DNA from: Escherichia phage mistaenkt | DNA length: 64,000 nucleotides | Sequence record: MN850587.1 | Reading direction: 5' to 3' (one strand) | Shown here: positions 11,402 through 43,164 of the stretch, in pieces | Layout of the letters: every line of letters starts with the position of its first letter | Position numbering within the stretch: position 1 is the stretch's first letter | The notes under the pieces: generated by a model | What the model was told of the DNA's origin: nothing | The model's input: only the letters and a program-made list of their open reading frames with translations | The model's database searches: none | Made by a program: the position numbers and the translations under genes

Positions 11402-12529
11402 TCAGATTTCACGTTTACGCTGAGAAATCAGTTCACCAGCAGTACCTACAACAACATGCAGTGCTTCAGATTTGCCATCCCACTCTTTGACAACCTGACG
11501 CTGACCATTTACAATTGCTGCAACCTCATAACGTGAAGCTCGCATTTTCATGTCTTGATAATCAGTTGGTACAGATACAACGTCTCGTGGATGTACACGA
11601 ACTTTCAGGATGGTATCACCAGAGAAGCTACGTACATAATCCCAAGCACCAACATGAAGACCTTGAGAGCAAGTTACTGTACGGTCATTATCAACCATCC
11701 ATCGTGGCATTTCTACAACGTTACCCAAATCATTAGGAACTTTGCATGTACGAGAGTCAAACAGCTTACCGCCACGAGTTGTAACTTTCTTCCAACCAAT
11801 GATATAACCTTCTTCATCAATCTCAACATCAAGGTGAGATACAAAGCCCCAAAGTTGTTCTACAGAATCTTTGGATGGGTTTTCCATAAGTTTTTCGAAG
11901 AATGCTACCAGACGTTTAAATCCGTCATCACCAACTTTCATCATGTCCAGAATACGGTCTACCAGAGTTGAACGCATTTGTACAGCACCGTAGTACAGGT
12001 TATCGCCTTTGATAGTGATTGCACCCTGAGTGAAGTTTTCGATAGATTTGCGGATATTCATCAGTTCGAAAGCTTTCTTATACTCGCCACCTACAACAGC
12101 CATCACAATCTCTTTGTAGTTCGGATGGGTAGACTCAACGATTTCAGAATCTGCACCGAAAGTCATGATAACAGAATCACCAGTAATCATGTACTCAATC
12201 TGGTTACCATTCTGCATTGCTTCATGCAGTTGGTTAACAGGTTCTTTCTTCACTGCCTCTTTAACAGCTTTGGCAACTTTGGCAACTTTGGCAACTGGTT
12301 TAGTAGCCGTCTTCTTAGCAGACTTTGCAATCTGTTTCAGAGTCTGTTTAGCTGGCTTGGAAGTTGCTTTCTTAGCACCTCTCAGTGTTGCTTCGTGACG
12401 TTCTACAGCACGACCAACGGAACGTGTAGAAGTATTATACTTCATTGCAATGGCAGTTTTGGTCAGTTTACCTTCCTGAACCATTGCATAAATTTCTGCG
12501 TCGATTTGTGCTTTAGTTTTAGTAGTCAT
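11402..12529 (-). CDS. Putative rIIB-like protein with N-terminal HTH-like segment and Lys/Ala-rich tract (375 aa)
   Basis: Immediately downstream of rIIA, as in T4-type rII loci; KKATSKPAKQTLKQIAKSAKKTATKPVAKVAKVAKAVKEAVKK tract; rIIB identity is by position and recollection, not verified. Confidence 0.45.
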   Translation of the reverse strand: MTTKTKAQIDAEIYAMVQEGKLTKTAIAMKYNTSTRSVGRAVERHEATLRGAKKATSKPAKQTLKQIAKSAKKTATKPVAKVAKVAKAVKEAVKKEPVNQLHEAMQNGNQIEYMITGDSVIMTFGADSEIVESTHPNYKEIVMAVVGGEYKKAFELMNIRKSIENFTQGAITIKGDNLYYGAVQMRSTLVDRILDMMKVGDDGFKRLVAFFEKLMENPSKDSVEQLWGFVSHLDVEIDEEGYIIGWKKVTTRGGKLFDSRTCKVPNDLGNVVEMPRWMVDNDRTVTCSQGLHVGAWDYVRSFSGDTILKVRVHPRDVVSVPTDYQDMKMRASRYEVAAIVNGQRQVVKEWDGKSEALHVVVGTAGELISQRKREI

Positions 12530-12608
12530 CTTATTACTCTCTCTTGTTAGTTAAAATTACTTAGTGGCTCGTATTCTAAGGGGCTTTTCAGCCCCTGTCA
12601 AACTATTT

Positions 12609-14975
12609 TTAATCAAAAGCCTGAGTTCCTTCAGGGATGCACTTAACATCAAACCCTAAGAACTGACCAACTTCAACAGGACTTACTTTATTCCAGTCTA
12701 AGTTAGAAAGCAAGAAGTTTTCTGCTTTACGTGCTTTGAAGTATACGGTCAATTTCTGCTTAATACGTTCTCTTGCGTTGTATATTGCAGAATGTACCTT
12801 ACTCTTCGCTCTTGTCAAACGCTGTAAGTCATGCAGAACGCTTGTAACGTCTTTATAAGCAATCGGTGAAGCAACATAAGCCAGCTTACCAAACATTGCT
12901 TCTACGGCCTCTTCGTTCCCTTCCAAGAAGATACGTTTGCTGTAATCAGCACTATATACATAGCCTCTTGAGCACTTCTTATCACCAAACTGGAACGTTC
13001 TGGCAATAACACCTTTATCAGTGATATCGCAGTTTGAGCTACACCACTCACGAGTTACAAAGCGGTTAAACTCAATCCAGTGAATGTCAGTGATAGAGTC
13101 TTTGAAGACTTGCTGATTCACTTCTAACCAGTCTTCAGGAATTTTCTTCCAGTTTGCTTTACGGAACACATAAACTGGCTGTCCAGTTAAACGTGCCATA
13201 ACCTTTGCAGCACCTTCTGGTGAGCAATTAAAGATTCCACCCAAAACATCATCACCCTGTGCTTTGATATAATACTGAGGTTCTTCAATATCATCAAAGT
13301 TTTCTTTGACTTCTGTATAAGATACACCGTGTTCATGTACAGAAGCTTTGTAGAGTTTTACAACACCACGAGTTACGGTACGCTTCACATAGTGATGCTC
13401 TTTGTCAGACATTTTAACAATCGTCAACAGACTCTTATCAATCATGTGGAGATTAATAAACTGGTCTAACTCTTGTTCATCATAGAACACATAAACAATA
13501 CCGTTGTAGCGACGGAAGTTCGGTTCTTCATTTTCACGGTCACGACAAGCGCCACGAATAATCTGATTGCGTCCTACAGTCTTTTCAGTACCATTTTTGT
13601 TTCGACGGTCATTGATAAGGAACAAATAGTTAGACATTTTGTTCTTACTCATTGCACCGAAGATACTGAAGTTCGCACCTTCCTGAGTGTACATCGCTGA
13701 AGTTGCACGAATCTTATTTTCCAGTTGACTATACTTGAAGTAAGCAACAGGCTCATACAGATTCCCAATAACAGGAATGTGATTACCACTCTTATCAACA
13801 ACCAAAGCTCCTGAATCATCAGTTGCAAACTTTGGAGTGCCATCTTCATTACTCAACTGTCCTTGACGAATCTTTAAAAGTCTCTGTTCAAGGTCTGCTA
13901 AGTTCTGACCATTCCATTCAAGACGTGTAAACACATGCTGGAAGATTTCACGAGAGTTAGCTCGCAAGTCTGCATAAGCCTGTGCAGCGTCTGCCAAGGT
14001 TGGCTCGTTGTCAATACGTTTTACCACATCTTCTACAATCGTTGCAGTAATCTTTTTAACTGCATCTGTAATTGCTTTCTTAGTGGTCTCATTCATCTGC
14101 AATGCTTCACGAGATGCAGCGATAGCCACTGAACCGATTGGCATGTAGATGTTAACAAGGTCTACAGCATTACGGAAGAAGGTAGGCAGTACGTTGGTGA
14201 ACTCTGCACCAAGTAAATCTCCTAAGTCAACCGGATAAGCAATGTTACCCATGACAACGTTGAAGTTTGTCTGGTTATTACTTGAACGCCAGTTCTCTTT
14301 ATACTTCATTGCATCGTAAACACCATCTTCACGAACAATGGTTGTCATCTCACTGAGAATGTCACGATATTCAACGTTGCATTCTGGCTTCAGTTTGAAG
14401 TAAGAGAATACGTTACTCGCTTCTTCATGGAACTTCTGAATACGGTGGCCAGCCACTGCAACACGAACTGCTAAACCATTTGGTTCGGTAGTTGGGTTAG
14501 TAGTCAGTTTAGTAACTTGAGGAATACCATTCTCAAGATATACAGAGTACTTGTTAACCACTCCATCTACGTAGCTGGACACGGTGAATGACTGTGCAAT
14601 TGCAAAAGGTGACTTCGAACCGATACCCATAGCGCCGATGTAGTCGTTTGAGTCATTCTTAGTAGAAGCTCCATAGTTCAGGTACAGAGACATAACCTTC
14701 TCATGAGTCAGGCCAGTACCGAAGTCACGAACTTCAAAGTACGGGTCAAAACGAGTTGGCAGGTGTACACGAAATGGTACATTCTCTTTTCCAGCTTCTT
14801 TGTGAGTATCTACAGCATTACAAGACAACTCACGAATTACAGCACGTTCTTTAAAAGTGTAGACACCTGAACTTAACAGGCTGAACATTTCAGGAGTCAT
14901 CGTGATAGATGCCTGAGAAGTTTCTAATGAAGATGAACTCTTAATCACCTCTGCGTGGTCATTTACCATGCGCAT
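12609..14975 (-). CDS. rIIA: rIIA-like protein with GHKL-type ATPase domain (788 aa)
   Basis: Bergerat-fold motifs IRELSCNAVDT (N box), EVRDFGTGL (DxGxG), GAMGIGSKS (GxxGxG); size and position fit phage rIIA. Confidence 0.75.
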   Translation of the reverse strand: MRMVNDHAEVIKSSSSLETSQASITMTPEMFSLLSSGVYTFKERAVIRELSCNAVDTHKEAGKENVPFRVHLPTRFDPYFEVRDFGTGLTHEKVMSLYLNYGASTKNDSNDYIGAMGIGSKSPFAIAQSFTVSSYVDGVVNKYSVYLENGIPQVTKLTTNPTTEPNGLAVRVAVAGHRIQKFHEEASNVFSYFKLKPECNVEYRDILSEMTTIVREDGVYDAMKYKENWRSSNNQTNFNVVMGNIAYPVDLGDLLGAEFTNVLPTFFRNAVDLVNIYMPIGSVAIAASREALQMNETTKKAITDAVKKITATIVEDVVKRIDNEPTLADAAQAYADLRANSREIFQHVFTRLEWNGQNLADLEQRLLKIRQGQLSNEDGTPKFATDDSGALVVDKSGNHIPVIGNLYEPVAYFKYSQLENKIRATSAMYTQEGANFSIFGAMSKNKMSNYLFLINDRRNKNGTEKTVGRNQIIRGACRDRENEEPNFRRYNGIVYVFYDEQELDQFINLHMIDKSLLTIVKMSDKEHHYVKRTVTRGVVKLYKASVHEHGVSYTEVKENFDDIEEPQYYIKAQGDDVLGGIFNCSPEGAAKVMARLTGQPVYVFRKANWKKIPEDWLEVNQQVFKDSITDIHWIEFNRFVTREWCSSNCDITDKGVIARTFQFGDKKCSRGYVYSADYSKRIFLEGNEEAVEAMFGKLAYVASPIAYKDVTSVLHDLQRLTRAKSKVHSAIYNARERIKQKLTVYFKARKAENFLLSNLDWNKVSPVEVGQFLGFDVKCIPEGTQAFD

Positions 14976-34913: not shown

Positions 34914-35717
34914 TTAGTGAATCTGCGTAGAATCAAGCTTTTCTTTATCAGACAGAGCCTGAATAGTTGCTACAAATTCATCACCAAAGTGGATGGCAAT
35001 CTTGTCTTGAAGAACTGCTGCACCAGTTTGCATAATCACTTCTCGCAGGGCTTCACCACTTACGTTACCAGCAATCTGCTCTACAAACTCAATAGGTGCA
35101 TCAATCAAACCTGCAACTTCAAACAGAGCGTGAATGCTCATCACGGTGATGATTGAAGGAACCAGAGCAGTCAGTTTGACTTGAATCTCATCAAGGCCAC
35201 GTTCAGCTTCATTGTCAACAACCTCTTGAAGTTGCTCTTTGGTCAGTTTCACCATTTCCTGTGAACGCTCAAAGATATCTGCAAAACCCCAATCAAGTTT
35301 TTCATAGCGTGGAAGTTTCTCTTGAACACGCTTCTCAAGTACAGCCATCACACTTGCAATTGAGTTGATAATCAGGTTGAAGGTCTCGTCTTCAGTGAAC
35401 TCAAGCAGTGCTTCTTTCTCTTCTTCAGAGAGAACTTTGTAGTCACCAGTTTGCATCTTGTCAAAGACATAACCAGCAAAGGCATCTACACCAACAGCTA
35501 CTGAAGCCAGAGCCAGTTGACGGTTATTCAGAAGCAGTTCAACCTGCGAGCGAAATGCTGACTCATCAGAGATTTCTGCATTAACCTGATAAGATTCAGG
35601 AGTTGCTTGTGAACTGAAGGTATTGCTACGCATAACGATAGCAAGGCTTTCAACAGTGTTCAGCATAAAGTTACTATCAATACCTTTGGAGGCCAGCATT
35701 TCATTTACAGTAGTCAT
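34914..35717 (-). CDS. Hypothetical protein (267 aa)
   Basis: Long ORF in the leftward operon. Confidence 0.65.
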   Translation of the reverse strand: MTTVNEMLASKGIDSNFMLNTVESLAIVMRSNTFSSQATPESYQVNAEISDESAFRSQVELLLNNRQLALASVAVGVDAFAGYVFDKMQTGDYKVLSEEEKEALLEFTEDETFNLIINSIASVMAVLEKRVQEKLPRYEKLDWGFADIFERSQEMVKLTKEQLQEVVDNEAERGLDEIQVKLTALVPSIITVMSIHALFEVAGLIDAPIEFVEQIAGNVSGEALREVIMQTGAAVLQDKIAIHFGDEFVATIQALSDKEKLDSTQIH

Positions 35718-35718
35718 A

Positions 35719-36141
35719 TTAATTCTCTCTCATTTTGTTAAGTGTTTGTCGTGATAACTTTAAGCTTTCTGTAGAGGAAAAGTCAAGAACTTTTTCAGAC
35801 CTTGGGAAGTAATGTCTATCCCATGAACTTTCTACATCGCTAATCAGTGTTGCTAGGTTATCTAAGTCTGTTCCGTTTTGCAACTTCTTTTTTAAAGAAT
35901 CTATCAAGAAGAGTGTATCTTTTGCTTTACGCCTCTCAGCAGATATCTCCTTCATATGCTCAAAGACTGAACATTTCATTCTTTCATCGTAACCTTCGGA
36001 GAGTTCAATCTCATGTTGAACATCAACCATTCGACGGTGATGGTAAGCGTATTCCTTTTGAGCAGCAATGTCAAGTTCTTCCAACTTTTTTAAAGCTCTC
36101 ATGAAGTCAGCTATGTCTGGGTGAACAAACATTCTCTGCAT
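35719..36141 (-). CDS. Hypothetical protein (140 aa), first gene of the leftward operon
   Basis: ORF starting at the divergent control region. Confidence 0.6.
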   Translation of the reverse strand: MQRMFVHPDIADFMRALKKLEELDIAAQKEYAYHHRRMVDVQHEIELSEGYDERMKCSVFEHMKEISAERRKAKDTLFLIDSLKKKLQNGTDLDNLATLISDVESSWDRHYFPRSEKVLDFSSTESLKLSRQTLNKMREN

Positions 36142-36398
36142 AATGCCCTCTTTTAAGTACCTATTAAACTTAATCTGTTTTCTTTACGTATTCTATACGT
36201 ATAACTTTAAAGCTTCTTAAAAGCTATTAAAAATCTTTTAAGGGTTTTAAAGAAACTGTATAGTTAATCTGTAAAGGGAGTCTTTTAAGTTAAAACCCAC
36301 TTCGCAAAGATTAACACCTTGTCAAGTGAATTGTCAACTTGCTTTTTGAAACTTTTTGCAGTAATGTATTGAGTCAATGATTTTGAGAGGGAGTAAAA
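36142..36398. promoter_or_regulatory. Divergent control region between leftward and rightward operons
   Basis: 257 bp AT-rich, several CTTTTAAG/CTTAAAAG motifs, TTGTCAAGTGAATTGTCAA direct repeat, candidate TTGCTT-17-TAATGT promoter ahead of the polymerase gene. Confidence 0.5.
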
Positions 36399-39098
36399 AT
36401 GGAAAACGTAGATTTTGAAAACTTGCACTTGGTAGGTGATACCGAAACTGATGGGTTACTCCTTGAGTTCACAAAAGCACACGTAATGGCATTTGCAGAT
36501 TACAAAGATGACAGTGACGAACCTGCTGTGTGGGTCTTCACTGATGAACCTATTCTTGGTCACAAATGCACTAAGTACATTAAAGGTGGTCTTCGTGAAG
36601 GTGTAGAGTTTGCTCTTAAGGCAAAACGTCTCTGCATTCATAACGGCCTTGGCTATGACTGGTGGGTGTTCAATCACATTGCACCGGACTTATGGAACTT
36701 TGATAATCCGAAGTGTAAACCTTGGGGAGACTTCTTTCAGGATTCTCTTATCCAGTCTCGTGTTCAGTGGATGGATAGACCTACACCGAAAGGTTACAAA
36801 GGTGCTCATGGTTTGGCTGCATGGGGTGCTCGTGTTGGTGTTCGTAAACCAGAGATTGAAGAGTGGGGTGTTTGGAATGCTGATATTCTGAACCGTGTTG
36901 TTGAGGATATTCGAATCAACGCCAAAACTAAACGTGCTCTTGATAACGAATACCTGAAGCTGAAGAAGTGTGGTGTAGACACTTATGAAACCTACATGCG
37001 AGCTAAAGAAACATCTTTCTGGATGAGTCAGCAAGCTATCAACGGTTGGAAAGCTGATATTGAACTTATGCAGTTCCATGTCAAAGAACTTGACAGAATG
37101 ACTGATGAATTAGCTGCTGAAGTTGAGCCTCATCTGCCACCGACTATCAAGACGAAAGGTAAAGTTACTGGTGAAGAGTTTGCAAGGGCTTGGAACGAGT
37201 ATGTTGAGACATTTGGTGAAGCAGATGGTTTGAAGCGTATCACTAAGTATCCAAAAACTAAGTTCCGTCAGCAGGTTCGCAATGGTGAGATGCAGACTTA
37301 CGCTATCAAACCTTTTGGTAAGCCAACTACCAAGATTTTCAACATTGAGAAGCGTAACTGCTACACTCCAACTAATACGGTTACTGGAGAAGAGTACAAA
37401 GAAGGTTTCGTGGCAATGAAAGATGCTCGTGCAGTTTGTAACGAGTTGAATGCTGCGATTGATAAGAAGTGCAAAGACTGGAAGCCAGTTAAAACTGTGA
37501 AGACTGTGAAGTACTACAACAATCACGTAGTAAATCACTTTGAACTTGAGTCAAGTCGTTACACAGGTTTGATTGATGCACCTTATACACCGATTGAGTT
37601 TGAAGTTTCACGTATGACTCAGGTTGCTGTTGTGAAGGATTATCTGAAAACTCTTGGCTGGATTCCTGATGACTGGAACTACAAGAAAGATTCTGATGGT
37701 CGTCCGGTGAAGGTTTGTCGCTTCAAAGACAACAAGAAGATGATTCGTAAACATCCTAAATGGCAAGAGATGGTGGAACGTTGCGGATTGAACTATGTTG
37801 AACATGAAGGTGTACAGTACATCGAACACAACTGGTCTGTGAAGAAGTACACAGATTTGCTTGAACCTTGCTTGATTCGTACTTCACCGAAACTAACTGA
37901 ATCATCTTACGATACGATTGAAGGTGAACTTGGACAGAAGATTGCGAAGTACTATACTTTAATGCACCGACGCAGAACTATCGAGAACTCAAAGGATGAC
38001 GAAAAAGGTTGGTTAAACCAGATTCGTCCAGATGGTCGTTTGAGTGCTGGTGCAATGGTGTTTGGTACTTCAACTGGACGTATGACACAATATGGAATTG
38101 TGAACGTACCTTCTGGGGCTGCTGTTTATGGTGAACCAATGAGGGCAGTCTGGATTTGTGAAGAGGGAACCAACGTAGTATCCGTTGATATGAACTCTGC
38201 ACAGCTTGTTTTACTGTGTAACTTTATGGGCGATAAAGAGTTCACCAAAGCGGTAACTCAAGGTAAAGAAGAGATTGAGTTTATCCGTCAGGAAGATGGC
38301 AGATATTACTGCAAACACTTTGACGAATACCTGAATCCAGAAGTTGATAAGTATCTACGTTATGACTCTGAAAACGACTTGTACGTAGTTTATTCAGGTA
38401 CTGATGCTCATACACTGAACAGCATCTACTTCAGCTTGAACGAAGAACAAGATATATTGACTTGTCGTATGACTCAGGATGAAAATCTTCTTCACGAAAT
38501 TAGTAAAGGTCGTAAGAAAGCTAAGAATGGTATCTATGCGTTACTGTTCGGTGCTGGTGATGAGAAGTTTGCTAAGACGATTAAAGCTGCGACTACTCAA
38601 GAAGGTGCATTAACTAAACAGACTTACTTTGTTCGTTTACCGAAGATTAAGAAACTGTTAGATGACTTGGAAGCTGACTTTAAAGCAACTAAGAAAGCAC
38701 TCGAAGAGGTATTTGGTAAGACTGCTGCAATTGCTAAAGGTGGTTTTGTCAAGGTTGCTGGAGCATGGTTGTGGTGTAAGTCTCCACACAAACTGTTGAA
38801 CTACTTGCTGATGGGTTCAGAAGCACAAGTTCAGAATGAAGCAATCAACCTTGCATGTCGTCGTATGATTGATGAAGGTTTGATGAAGTTGAATGGTCGT
38901 AAGCCAGCTATCGGTGCTCGTTTACTCTGTGCATATCACGATGAAACAAGTTGGGAATGTCCAGAGAGCATGACAGCAGAAGTTAAGGCTGTAACTGACT
39001 GGTACTACGGACAAGCTTCTAAGAACTTAGGGCTTCGTAAAGAAACTCTGGTAACAGGGACTGGTAAAGTTGGTAAGTCTTGGTATGAGGTGCATTGA
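36399..39098 (+). CDS. DNA polymerase, family A (T7-like), with 3-5 exonuclease domain
   Basis: Exo I motif DTETDG near the N-terminus; KKAKNGIYALLFG and HDE motifs in the polymerase domain; 899 aa. Confidence 0.9.
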   Translation: MENVDFENLHLVGDTETDGLLLEFTKAHVMAFADYKDDSDEPAVWVFTDEPILGHKCTKYIKGGLREGVEFALKAKRLCIHNGLGYDWWVFNHIAPDLWNFDNPKCKPWGDFFQDSLIQSRVQWMDRPTPKGYKGAHGLAAWGARVGVRKPEIEEWGVWNADILNRVVEDIRINAKTKRALDNEYLKLKKCGVDTYETYMRAKETSFWMSQQAINGWKADIELMQFHVKELDRMTDELAAEVEPHLPPTIKTKGKVTGEEFARAWNEYVETFGEADGLKRITKYPKTKFRQQVRNGEMQTYAIKPFGKPTTKIFNIEKRNCYTPTNTVTGEEYKEGFVAMKDARAVCNELNAAIDKKCKDWKPVKTVKTVKYYNNHVVNHFELESSRYTGLIDAPYTPIEFEVSRMTQVAVVKDYLKTLGWIPDDWNYKKDSDGRPVKVCRFKDNKKMIRKHPKWQEMVERCGLNYVEHEGVQYIEHNWSVKKYTDLLEPCLIRTSPKLTESSYDTIEGELGQKIAKYYTLMHRRRTIENSKDDEKGWLNQIRPDGRLSAGAMVFGTSTGRMTQYGIVNVPSGAAVYGEPMRAVWICEEGTNVVSVDMNSAQLVLLCNFMGDKEFTKAVTQGKEEIEFIRQEDGRYYCKHFDEYLNPEVDKYLRYDSENDLYVVYSGTDAHTLNSIYFSLNEEQDILTCRMTQDENLLHEISKGRKKAKNGIYALLFGAGDEKFAKTIKAATTQEGALTKQTYFVRLPKIKKLLDDLEADFKATKKALEEVFGKTAAIAKGGFVKVAGAWLWCKSPHKLLNYLLMGSEAQVQNEAINLACRRMIDEGLMKLNGRKPAIGARLLCAYHDETSWECPESMTAEVKAVTDWYYGQASKNLGLRKETLVTGTGKVGKSWYEVH

Positions 39099-39610
39099 TG
39101 CAAGATTGTGGTTTTACTCATGAGCAATTAAAATCATGGATTCACTACGACCCCTTAACAGGTGTCTTAACTTGGATTGGTAGACCTCCTAACAGTGGTA
39201 GGGTGGTTATAGGCAGTCAAGCTGGGTCAATCAAAAGGACAAAATCTGGTGTGTATCTTCATACACAGATACTAGGTTACAGGACAGGGAATCACCGTAT
39301 TGCTTGGTTCTGGATGACTGGAAAATGGCCTGATAAACATATTGACCATAAGGATGGAGATGGTCTAAACAATGCTTGGGAGAATCTTAGAGAAGCCACG
39401 AAAGAGCAGAACATGGCTAACAGGAGACAACCTAGAACATCAAAGAGTTTAAAAGGCACAAGTAGAAGCAAATCTGGAAAGTGGATTGCACAGATTAACC
39501 ATAATGGAAAGACTAACCATATTGGCACATACATGACCGAGCAAGAAGCCCACGAAGCTTACTGTGAAGCTGCTATAAAACTCCACGGAGATTTTGCAAA
39601 ACTTAGTTGA
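39098..39610 (+). mobile_element. HNH homing endonuclease with AP2-type DNA-binding domain
   Basis: HIDHKDGDGLNNAWENLREATKEQN (HNH core), then GKWIAQINHNGKTNHIGTYMTEQEAHEAYCEAA (AP2-like); ATG overlaps the polymerase stop (TGATG). Confidence 0.75.
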
Positions 39611-42668: not shown

Positions 42669-42872
42669 ATGAAGAAGAATCGTTGCAAGAAGAACTATGG
42701 AGAAGTGCTTGACGATGAAGGTCATGTCATCTTCCGAGTTTACTGTGCAGATGACTCTGAAGTAGATAAAGCACTTGATGACTATATCAACGGTACTCGT
42801 GAAAACGTCAGAGCAACAAACATAGATTCATTGATTGACACTTCCAGAAAACGGAGGAAGAAAGATGAATGA
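42669..42872 (+). CDS. Hypothetical protein (67 aa)
   Basis: ORF. Confidence 0.5.
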   Translation: MKKNRCKKNYGEVLDDEGHVIFRVYCADDSEVDKALDDYINGTRENVRATNIDSLIDTSRKRRKKDE

Positions 42873-43164
42873 AGTCTTTGACCCTTACGCCCCACAAGAT
42901 AAGTGGGAAGCTGATAGAGAGTATGAGATGGAAAGTTATATCTGCCCAATGGATGTAGACGAAATGAGAGAGTTCGTTGCATTCCGTTTTGAAAAAGAAA
43001 TTGAGAAAAGAAAACTTTCTCAGGCACAAGTTGCAAAGATTTGTGATATCTCTCAAAGTCGTGTTTCCAACATAGTCAATGGTACTGGAAAGATTACCCT
43101 TGAATACATGTTGAAAGCTTGTGAAAAACTTGGTGTTAACTTCAACTTAAGGCTGTCAGATTAA
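42865..43164 (+). CDS. XRE-family helix-turn-helix DNA-binding protein
   Basis: LSQAQVAKICDISQSRVSNIVNG helix-turn-helix; ATG at 42865 with SD. Confidence 0.6.
   Translation: MNEVFDPYAPQDKWEADREYEMESYICPMDVDEMREFVAFRFEKEIEKRKLSQAQVAKICDISQSRVSNIVNGTGKITLEYMLKACEKLGVNFNLRLSD

Follow-up and report, generated by a model that had tools for sequence, protein, structure and literature searches.

A probable divergent early promoter region with operator-like boxes between the replication operons of a Felix-O1-like Escherichia phage

The 257-bp spacer at positions 36142 to 36398 of the 64,000-nucleotide (nt) stretch of Escherichia phage mistaenkt analyzed here (record MN850587.1; hereafter, the window) is probably, at a rough probability of 60%, the divergent early promoter region of a Felix-O1-like phage, in which short repeated boxes most likely serve as operator sites. 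It lies between the open reading frame (ORF) of an ORF97 homologue and the DNA polymerase gene. As a divergent promoter region it is ordinary in kind, and some of its detail is new. The details that appear to be new, as read from sequence, are the exact positions of the predicted promoters, a three-member family of promoters that combine a double TTGACA with a downstream box, and a conserved palindrome of boxes with a link to the terminal region of the genome. Divergent promoters at this site, between Felix O1 genes 96 and 97, were already assumed in 2010 without being located; Whichard et al. found no promoter-like sequence in the 96-97 spacer, the homologue of the present one (Whichard et al. 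2010, PMC3185647).

36142..36398, no strand: entire intergenic control region, with the ORF97 homologue (- strand) on one side and the DNA polymerase gene (+ strand) on the other

The original prediction placed candidate promoters in both directions, and one each way is backed by phylogenetic footprinting, which together with a weighted sigma-70 scan replaced a stock consensus scan. Within the spacer, the weighted scan yielded one good site on the - strand (score 11.85) and only weak sites on the + strand. A direct repeat that had also been described, TTGTCAAGTGAATTGTCAA at 36319-36337, was confirmed: both TTGTCAA copies are invariant in the 20 haplotypes of our close-relative comparison (29 phages), with 5 variable nt between them. 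On the opposite strand this repeat reads TTGACA-ATTCAC-TTGACA and supplies the double -35 region of a predicted leftward promoter, P(-), with TGtTAATCT following 18 nt after the first TTGACA.

36332..36337, - strand: P(-) -35 hexamer TTGACA, the right-hand TTGTCAA copy; 6/6 match, invariant in the 20 haplotypes
36320..36325, - strand: second TTGACA, 12 nt downstream, between the -35 and -10 of P(-); invariant
36308..36316, - strand: extended -10 of P(-), TGtTAATCT; transcription start predicted near 36302
36342..36358, - strand: A-tracts upstream of the P(-) -35, CAAAAAGTTTCAAAAAG on this strand, resembling an UP element

With a TTGACA -35 and a TAnnnT -10 that carries the TGn extension at an 18-nt spacing, P(-) is supported, at the sequence level, as a strong extended -10 promoter of the host sigma-70 type. 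The UP-like label of its A-tracts follows general knowledge of sigma-70 promoters. In close relatives the -10 is TAATCT or TAGTCT behind a constant TG and one free base; the Moogle group, for instance, has TGgTAGTCT, which differs in the n position and in position 3 while TG, T1, A2 and T6 are kept. The variants TAGTCT, TAATGT, TACATT and TACGAT likewise always retain T1, A2 and T6. Distant lineages were collected from IMG/VR, metagenomes and Logan assemblies (Kolesnikvirus, L053/L066, L067, L055 and L068), and each carries a leftward TTGACA-17/18-TAnnnT; the TTGACA of this promoter was found in all lineages examined. L055 differs in the spacing of its two TTGACA copies (10 nt): the downstream one stands at the right distance from the -10 and looks like a functional -35. 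A reading of TTGCTTTTT as a T4 MotA box, considered without a search for MotA or AsiA homologues, was set aside as a resemblance only, the spacing to the -10 being normal for a -35.

The predicted rightward promoter, P(+), stands back to back with P(-).

36339..36344, + strand: P(+) -35 hexamer TTGCTT, one base from the P(-) -35; invariant in close relatives
36362..36367, + strand: P(+) -10 hexamer TAATGT; start predicted near 36372-36374, giving a 5' untranslated region of ~26 nt
36385..36393, + strand: ribosome-binding site of the polymerase gene, GAGAGGGAG, read from sequence; conserved in relatives

Close relatives have TAATGT, TAGGGT, TAAGGT or TAGTGT as the P(+) -10, and the variants overall add TAATTT, TATGAT, TATCAT and TAATCT; TAnnnT is always kept. 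The sequence between the hexamers and the stretch from the -10 to the ribosome-binding site drift near-neutrally (diversity 0.13-0.23). Kolesnikvirus has a much better rightward promoter, TTGTAT-18-TGaTATGAT, and L055 has TTGTCA-16-TATCAT, in which the + strand -35 is the TTGTCA box itself. These stronger versions, together with hexamers that are kept around a free spacer, support P(+). The geometry is also shared: Kolesnikvirus (TGTCAA-g-TTGTAT) and L068 likewise have back-to-back -35 hexamers, and in the distant lineages other than L055 the rightward -35 adjoins the leftward TTGACA at a gap of 1-4 nt, with the surrounding sequence turned over. Because both -35 hexamers and TAnnnT are kept while the spacers drift, both promoters are credible. 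From its start near 36302, P(-) would drive the genes for ORF97 and ORF98, deoxynucleoside monophosphate (dNMP) kinase, primase-helicase, exonuclease and ribonucleotide reductase; from near 36373, P(+) would drive the polymerase-to-thymidylate-synthase operon. The two promoter footprints would overlap by ~38 bp, so that binding at the weak P(+) is probably coupled to binding at the strong P(-).

The original prediction spoke of coordinated middle-gene regulation. A divergent control region of both replication operons is supported; the term middle is not, because the homologous genes are transcribed within 5 min and both promoters are host sigma-70-like. In Felix O1, genes 96, 101 and 105 were transcribed by 5 min as timed by reverse transcription-PCR, the phage has no RNA polymerase of its own, and Whichard et al. 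report no polymerase-modifying proteins (PMC3185647).

P(-) belongs to a family. In a genome of ~87 kb, assembled from the window and pieces of phage phiSUSP1, TTGACA-N4-8-TTGACA occurs at exactly three sites, all on the same strand.

36320..36337, - strand: double-TTGACA site 1, in the spacer, P(-)
1941..2007, - strand: double-TTGACA site 2, TTGACA-N7-TTGACA, TGaTAGATT, then ACTTAAAAGATTC; weighted score 15.1
phiSUSP1 82310-82557: double-TTGACA site 3, in the other divergent spacer (L065 ~4408), at the head of the tRNA and morphogenesis unit

Spacer positions 36259-36358 align locally, over 100 nt, with window positions 1931-2028. All three promoters have an A5-6 tract ~4 nt upstream of the -35 and ACTTAAAAGA(C/T)TC 17-29 nt after the -10, which makes the leftward promoter a member of a three-promoter family with a common downstream box. 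Site 3 matches in position the promoter P41, predicted by Whichard et al. in the Felix O1 40-41 intergenic region. At the paralogues, too, a second TTGACA lies inside the promoter spacer without a matching -10 (window 1989-1994; L065 ~4420).

The ~160-nt leader between P(-) and ORF97 is clearly under selection. Nucleotide diversity in the spacer is 0.087, compared with 0.22 at third codon positions of both neighboring genes, and falls to 0.02 in the palindrome core at 36206-36237, the most conserved stretch of the spacer. Several CTTTTAAG/CTTAAAAG motifs had been noted here, and the four copies found are far above what shuffles of the spacer itself produce.

36150, 36235 and 36282, + strand: exact copies of CTTTTAAG
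36216: copy of CTTAAAAG, the complement of CTTTTAAG
36278..36290, - strand: box 1, a ACTTAAAGAC-type 13-mer, ACTTAAAAGACTC on this strand, 17 nt after the P(-) -10, at about +10 to +22
36205..36253, no strand: four-box palindrome (inverted repeat I1), CTTTAAAG-3-CTTAAAAG-11-CTTTTAAG-2-TTTTAAAG
36146..36157, - strand: ribosome-binding site of ORF97 (GAGGG) with a CTTAAAAG box immediately before it, read from sequence

In 5,000 dinucleotide-preserving shuffles of the spacer, CTTTTAAG/CTTAAAAG occurred 0.10 times on average and at most twice; in the window there are 20 copies against 4.2 expected. The looser motif CTTWWAAG is present five times in the spacer (0.16 expected, at most 3 in such shuffles) and 31 times in the whole window (8.4 expected), with 16 of the 31 in the intergenic 5.8% of the window. 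The arrangement recurs as well as the motif. Box 1, with C or T at one position, is common to the other two double-TTGACA promoters, and a box (CTTAAAAG or CTTAACAG) stands 15-18 nt after the P(-) -10 in Felix, L053, L055, L066, L067 and Kolesnikvirus, so that this first box is found in all lineages examined except L068. Within each pair of the palindrome, the boxes lie 11 bp apart from center to center. The L053/L066 lineage has an equal arrangement around a 14-nt center of unrelated sequence, with seven boxes in all. L055 and Kolesnikvirus have CTGTTAAG/CTTAACAG-type boxes instead, and Kolesnikvirus has a box cluster in the other divergent spacer as well. The box beside the ORF97 ribosome-binding site varies among relatives (CTATTAAG, CTACTAAG or CTTTATAG).

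The AT-rich stretch would be a selected cis-regulatory leader, and the CTTWWAAG boxes most likely bind a DNA-binding protein, of phage or host, that would modulate or shut off the early promoters. Besides an operator array, a leader RNA structure or an origin comes into consideration for the boxes; a regulatory role of the palindrome is probable. Three other candidates in the spacer were discarded. The 9-bp inverted repeat GGGTTTTAA/TTAAAACCC (I8) is not a conserved hairpin, its left arm changing between GGG, GAG and GAC without compensation. A concerted T-to-A change in both TCTTTTAAGT copies of the Moogle phages is no evidence, being confined to one clade at sites that are otherwise variable. 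Small ORFs of 25, 47 and 32 amino acids (aa) have no conservation logic.

The same boxes recur near the presumed end of the genome.

50..189, + strand: second box cluster, four CTTTTAAG and two CTTATAAG, at the edge of a large noncoding region near the presumed genome terminus

Of the 28 CTTTTAAG copies in the Susp genome, 13 fall within the two divergent spacers and the terminal region, which by itself holds six copies of this first box. In Kolesnikvirus the first box is CTGTTAAGAG, in agreement with the motif that crowds the terminal region of that phage: of 26 TGTTAAGA copies, 18 are located there and one forms the first box downstream of P(-). This lineage-specific match between box and terminus is suggestive of a shared DNA-binding factor, although not decisive. 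Window positions 1-469 form the edge of a 1.7-kb noncoding region (phiSUSP1 72920-74613, equal to L009 6921-8614) packed with short repeats, namely CTTTTAAG, CTTATAAG, CTTTATAG, TTAACA, CTAACAAG and, twice, CTTTTACGTAACTTTATAGC. In the homologous region of Kolesnikvirus PP079184 are the record ends and a direct terminal repeat of ~400 bp full of TGTTAAGA and CTTCTAAG, and the 1.7-kb region is probably at the physical genome terminus.

The boxes occupy the first 20 nt of three predicted early transcripts, the ORF97 palindrome and the terminal noncoding region. From this distribution one may draw a stronger proposal, which we regard as speculative and rather improbable: that the CTTWWAAG and CTGTTAAG-type boxes would all be sites of a single Ounavirinae DNA-binding protein linking early-promoter shut-off to replication or packaging. 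In a variant of it, the palindrome could be a replication origin. Two phage proteins were considered as partners of the boxes. An XRE/HTH_3 helix-turn-helix (HTH) protein is encoded in the rightward unit (42865-43164), and the ORF97 product has an AlphaFold model with a long antiparallel helical hairpin (predicted local distance difference test score of 74; all fold matches at E > 0.2).

Part of the leader also has the symmetry of a paired structure.

36182..36201, no strand: small inverted repeat TACGTAT-TCT-ATACGTA, composed of E3 (36182-36191) and E2 (36195-36201), a 7-8-bp hairpin
36269..36276, - strand: element E1, CTTTACAG on this strand, a box-like 8-mer complementary to E3
36178..36280, no strand: long imperfect palindrome of ~100 nt that encloses the central palindrome, E1 and E3

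In the small hairpin, 36185-36191 pairs with 36195-36201, and two pairs have changed on both sides and are still paired: one is AU in 9 and UA in 6 cases (UA in the Felix clade), the other CG in 13 and UA in 2 (UA in Moogle and Michonne). These two right-hand columns can alternatively pair with 36271-36276, and the three elements covary in two clades, E1 changing along with the other two (CTTTAC in Susp, CTTAAC in Felix, CTTTAT in Moogle). The 107-nt segment 36176-36282 folds as RNA far better than its shuffles (- strand, z = -3.5; + strand, z = -5.2), and similar values hold for Felix, L038 and L053 (z from -3.5 to -5.5 overall). With DNA parameters, the long palindrome gives z = -3.5 on either strand, and the central palindrome likewise forms a hairpin on either strand (z of about -3.5). 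The base pairing or symmetry appears real but partial, and its carrier may be DNA or RNA. In its G-U pairs the long palindrome is asymmetric, with seven on the + strand versus one on the - strand, and five of six lineages show the + strand bias. Either an unseen rightward transcript or selection that disfavors an overly stable hairpin in the leftward mRNA could account for this fold bias; no + strand promoter scoring above 8.7 was found within 1.6 kb upstream of the palindrome.

Several results weigh against a divergent promoter region with operator boxes. The stock consensus promoter and terminator scan of 35600-36900 reported nothing within the spacer. P(+), at TTGCTT-17-TAATGT, is weak by consensus, with 3/6 and 3/6 matches and a weighted score of 5.9, and the second TTGACA of P(-) has no matching -10. 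Neither candidate protein fits well: the XRE-type HTH protein is ruled out as the universal partner, having no homologue in Kolesnikvirus, which keeps the architecture, and ORF97 was rejected as the box-binding protein, with no sequence match in Pfam or PDB and no DNA-binding fold. The compensatory changes of E1, E2 and E3 point to base pairing more than to recognition by a protein, since they were not accompanied by changes in the other boxes. Finally, the literature searched gave no mapped transcription start for any Felix-O1-like phage.

The pairing raises the possibility, which we consider unlikely, that the conserved leader acts as RNA, whether in processing by ribonuclease III (RNase III) or in stability, as a switch of translation, or in antitermination. 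It would do so through the long hairpin and the alternative E3-E2 and E3-E1 pairings, and antitermination could allow polymerase to read through along the 36-kb leftward unit with its many terminators, whose passage Whichard et al. left unexplained (PMC3185647). The concerted, complementarity-keeping changes and the folding of the 107-nt segment agree with such a role, and the leaders of the other two double-TTGACA promoters also start with hairpins. However, the compensatory events number just two and are shared by two alternative helices, the outer arms are uncompensated between L066 and L067 (14 pairs broken), and the ACGTA hairpin is absent from the L053, L066 and L067 lineages. The full 173-nt leader is not unusually stable (z = -0.48), the G-U pairs favor the strand for which no promoter is visible, and Rfam, searched at E up to 10, returned chance-level microRNA and small nucleolar RNA matches but no family. 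Moreover, the box also clusters in the terminal region, past terminators, where a role at the DNA level is more natural.

That the region is, or also is, an origin of the T7 kind, with a strong promoter firing into an AT-rich palindromic stretch, is decidedly doubtful. The transcript or the opened DNA would let a T7-like primase-helicase and polymerase start synthesis, and the surrounding genes do encode a T7-like replisome (Pol A, a gp4-like primase-helicase and a gp6-like exonuclease). The spacer is among the most AT-rich 257-nt stretches of the window, has palindromes with 11-bp phased repeats, shares identical boxes with the terminal noncoding region and lies at the minimum of cumulative GC skew. 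The skew was discarded as origin evidence because it is confounded by gene orientation: the turn at 36 kb coincides with the switch in gene orientation, as does the opposite turn at 46 kb. Searches of the spacer gave no DnaA box (at most 1 mismatch), no IHF consensus, no GATC and none of the preferred T7 primase sites GGGTC, TGGTC and GTGTC. Its only exact repeat of at least 10 nt is TCTTTTAAGT, present twice, with no long iterons, so that an iteron/DnaA-box origin is not recognizable although the AT-rich element is present. The promoters are host-type in a phage without its own RNA polymerase (PMC3185647), and the literature searched describes no origin for the Felix-O1-like group. The box-plus-promoter module is repeated at two other operon starts, unlike a unique origin, and the recurrence of the box motif in two other promoter leaders favors a transcriptional over a replicative role. 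The replication origin suggested by the original prediction is unsupported, as nothing specific favors it.

It is highly improbable that the spacer contains nothing specific beyond its two promoters and that the motifs are by-products of AT-rich, low-complexity sequence: the region is indeed low in GC, and several CTTTTAAG matches across the window are merely loops of terminator hairpins, but this account already appears contradicted by shuffles that never attain the observed box counts, by a diversity 2.5-fold below synonymous-like sites (10-fold in the palindrome core) and by a box arrangement kept across lineages.

A divergent early promoter region is also in keeping with the setting of the spacer. 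As the original prediction had it, this is an AT-rich spacer of 257 bp; its boundaries are exact, as it fills the gap between a - strand ORF (35719..36141) and the + strand gene of an 899-aa DNA polymerase (36399..39098), and its GC content is 29.2%, compared with 39.9% for the window, a lower value being reached by just 0.03% of 257-nt windows. Its location between replication genes on both strands was borne out by the neighboring genes in phiSUSP1 and Felix O1, where the homologous spacer, without annotated features in either phage, has the DNA polymerase gene (gene 96 in Felix O1) on one side and an ORF97 homologue on the other. The ORF97 homologue (35719-36141) encodes 140 aa, with 44-84% identity across Ounavirinae, and is the first gene of the leftward replication operon, followed by ORF98 and the genes for dNMP kinase, primase-helicase, exonuclease and ribonucleotide reductase. 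The rightward unit begins with the DNA polymerase gene and ends with those for dihydrofolate reductase and thymidylate synthase. The window comes from a Suspvirus, a myophage of the Felix-O1-like kind. Around the spacer, a 3-kb piece shares 97% identity with the Escherichia phages phiSUSP1 and SUSP2 (Ounavirinae, Suspvirus) and ~85% with some 250 Felix-O1-like phages. The 341 nt centered on the spacer (36100-36440) are 100% identical to phiSUSP1, compared with 97.1% for the surrounding 3 kb (35000-38000), which may be a further sign of constraint or of a recent exchange of the segment. The polymerase gene is flanked by mobile endonuclease insertions on a side that differs between lineages: an HNH homing endonuclease gene lies directly after it in the window (39098-39610) and in Felix O1, and between promoter and polymerase gene in Kolesnikvirus (L007 1974-2450).

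Other promoter-like elements occur elsewhere in the window. Among the small - strand genes at 700-6500, repeated cassettes fill intergenic gaps (2579-2652, 3511-3594, 4334-4418, 5399-5487, 6001-6087 and 6346-6430, and also 722-787, 1052-1111 and 1640-1703). Six copies have the form CTTTACA-TGGGG...CCCC-AGATAAAGAG and may be read as TTTACA-N17-TGaTAAGAT (or TACCAT) promoters whose spacer is a GGGG/CCCC hairpin, and a GGGGAGGGAGACTTCCCC hairpin is present in three copies. Ahead of ~13 start codons of this region stands a CCTAAACTGGAGAnTC context that hardly varies. These cassettes recall the promoter-early stem-loop cassettes of T4-type phages. On the - strand at 12530-12608 lies a further promoter-like sequence, TTGACA-GGGGCTGAAAAGCCCCT-TAGAAT (score 15.2), whose spacer is a perfect GGGGC/GCCCC hairpin, upstream of a 375-aa ORF (11402-12529) and downstream of a 788-aa ORF (12609-14975). 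From their sizes and their order relative to the Kolesnikvirus annotation, these two ORFs are taken as putative rIIB and rIIA, respectively.

Felix-O1-like phages are widely used for typing of Salmonella and Escherichia coli, biocontrol and therapy, and their transcription program is essentially unmapped. Both predicted promoters, which the 2010 genome paper could not find, are now placed to the base, and the conserved palindrome offers a concrete experimental target. If the boxes are indeed an operator or origin system, they would be the start of an explanation for temporal control without known polymerase modifiers.

Compared with known systems, the leader recalls the RNase III sites of T7 early mRNA and the lambda N leader hairpin, which are likewise long irregular hairpins in an early phage transcript leader. 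The present leader differs in being very AU-rich and in having moderate thermodynamic support on the transcribed strand. The primary origin of T7 consists of phage promoters followed by an AT-rich stretch, and the spacer resembles it in a promoter that fires into a very AT-rich segment and in the T7-like polymerase, primase-helicase and exonuclease. Unlike T7, it has host-type promoters in a phage without an RNA polymerase, and no preferred primase sites. Like the lambda OR and OL operator arrays, the boxes are several, short and near-palindromic, are phased by 11 bp within each pair with an overall twofold symmetry, and are placed between divergent phage promoters. In contrast to the lambda operators, which are bound by HTH dimers, they measure 8 bp rather than ~17 bp and are located downstream of a single promoter instead of covering both, and the phage is virulent, with no lysogeny switch. 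The phiSUSP1 counterpart of Felix O1 P41 (TTGACA-N15-TATAGG; PMC3185647) shares with P(-) the double-TTGACA core and the ACTTAAAAGACTC box, but the -10 placement used here departs from the published N15 reading. The spacer shares several features with back-to-back divergent sigma-70 promoters, extended -10 (TGn) ones included, of bacteria and phage early regions: predicted -35 and -10 hexamers 17-18 nt apart, adjoining outward-facing -35 boxes, the TGn extension and upstream A-tract of P(-), and homologous Felix O1 genes that are transcribed within 5 min. What distinguishes it from them is the second invariant TTGACA in the spacer of P(-) and the conserved box at about +10 to +22.

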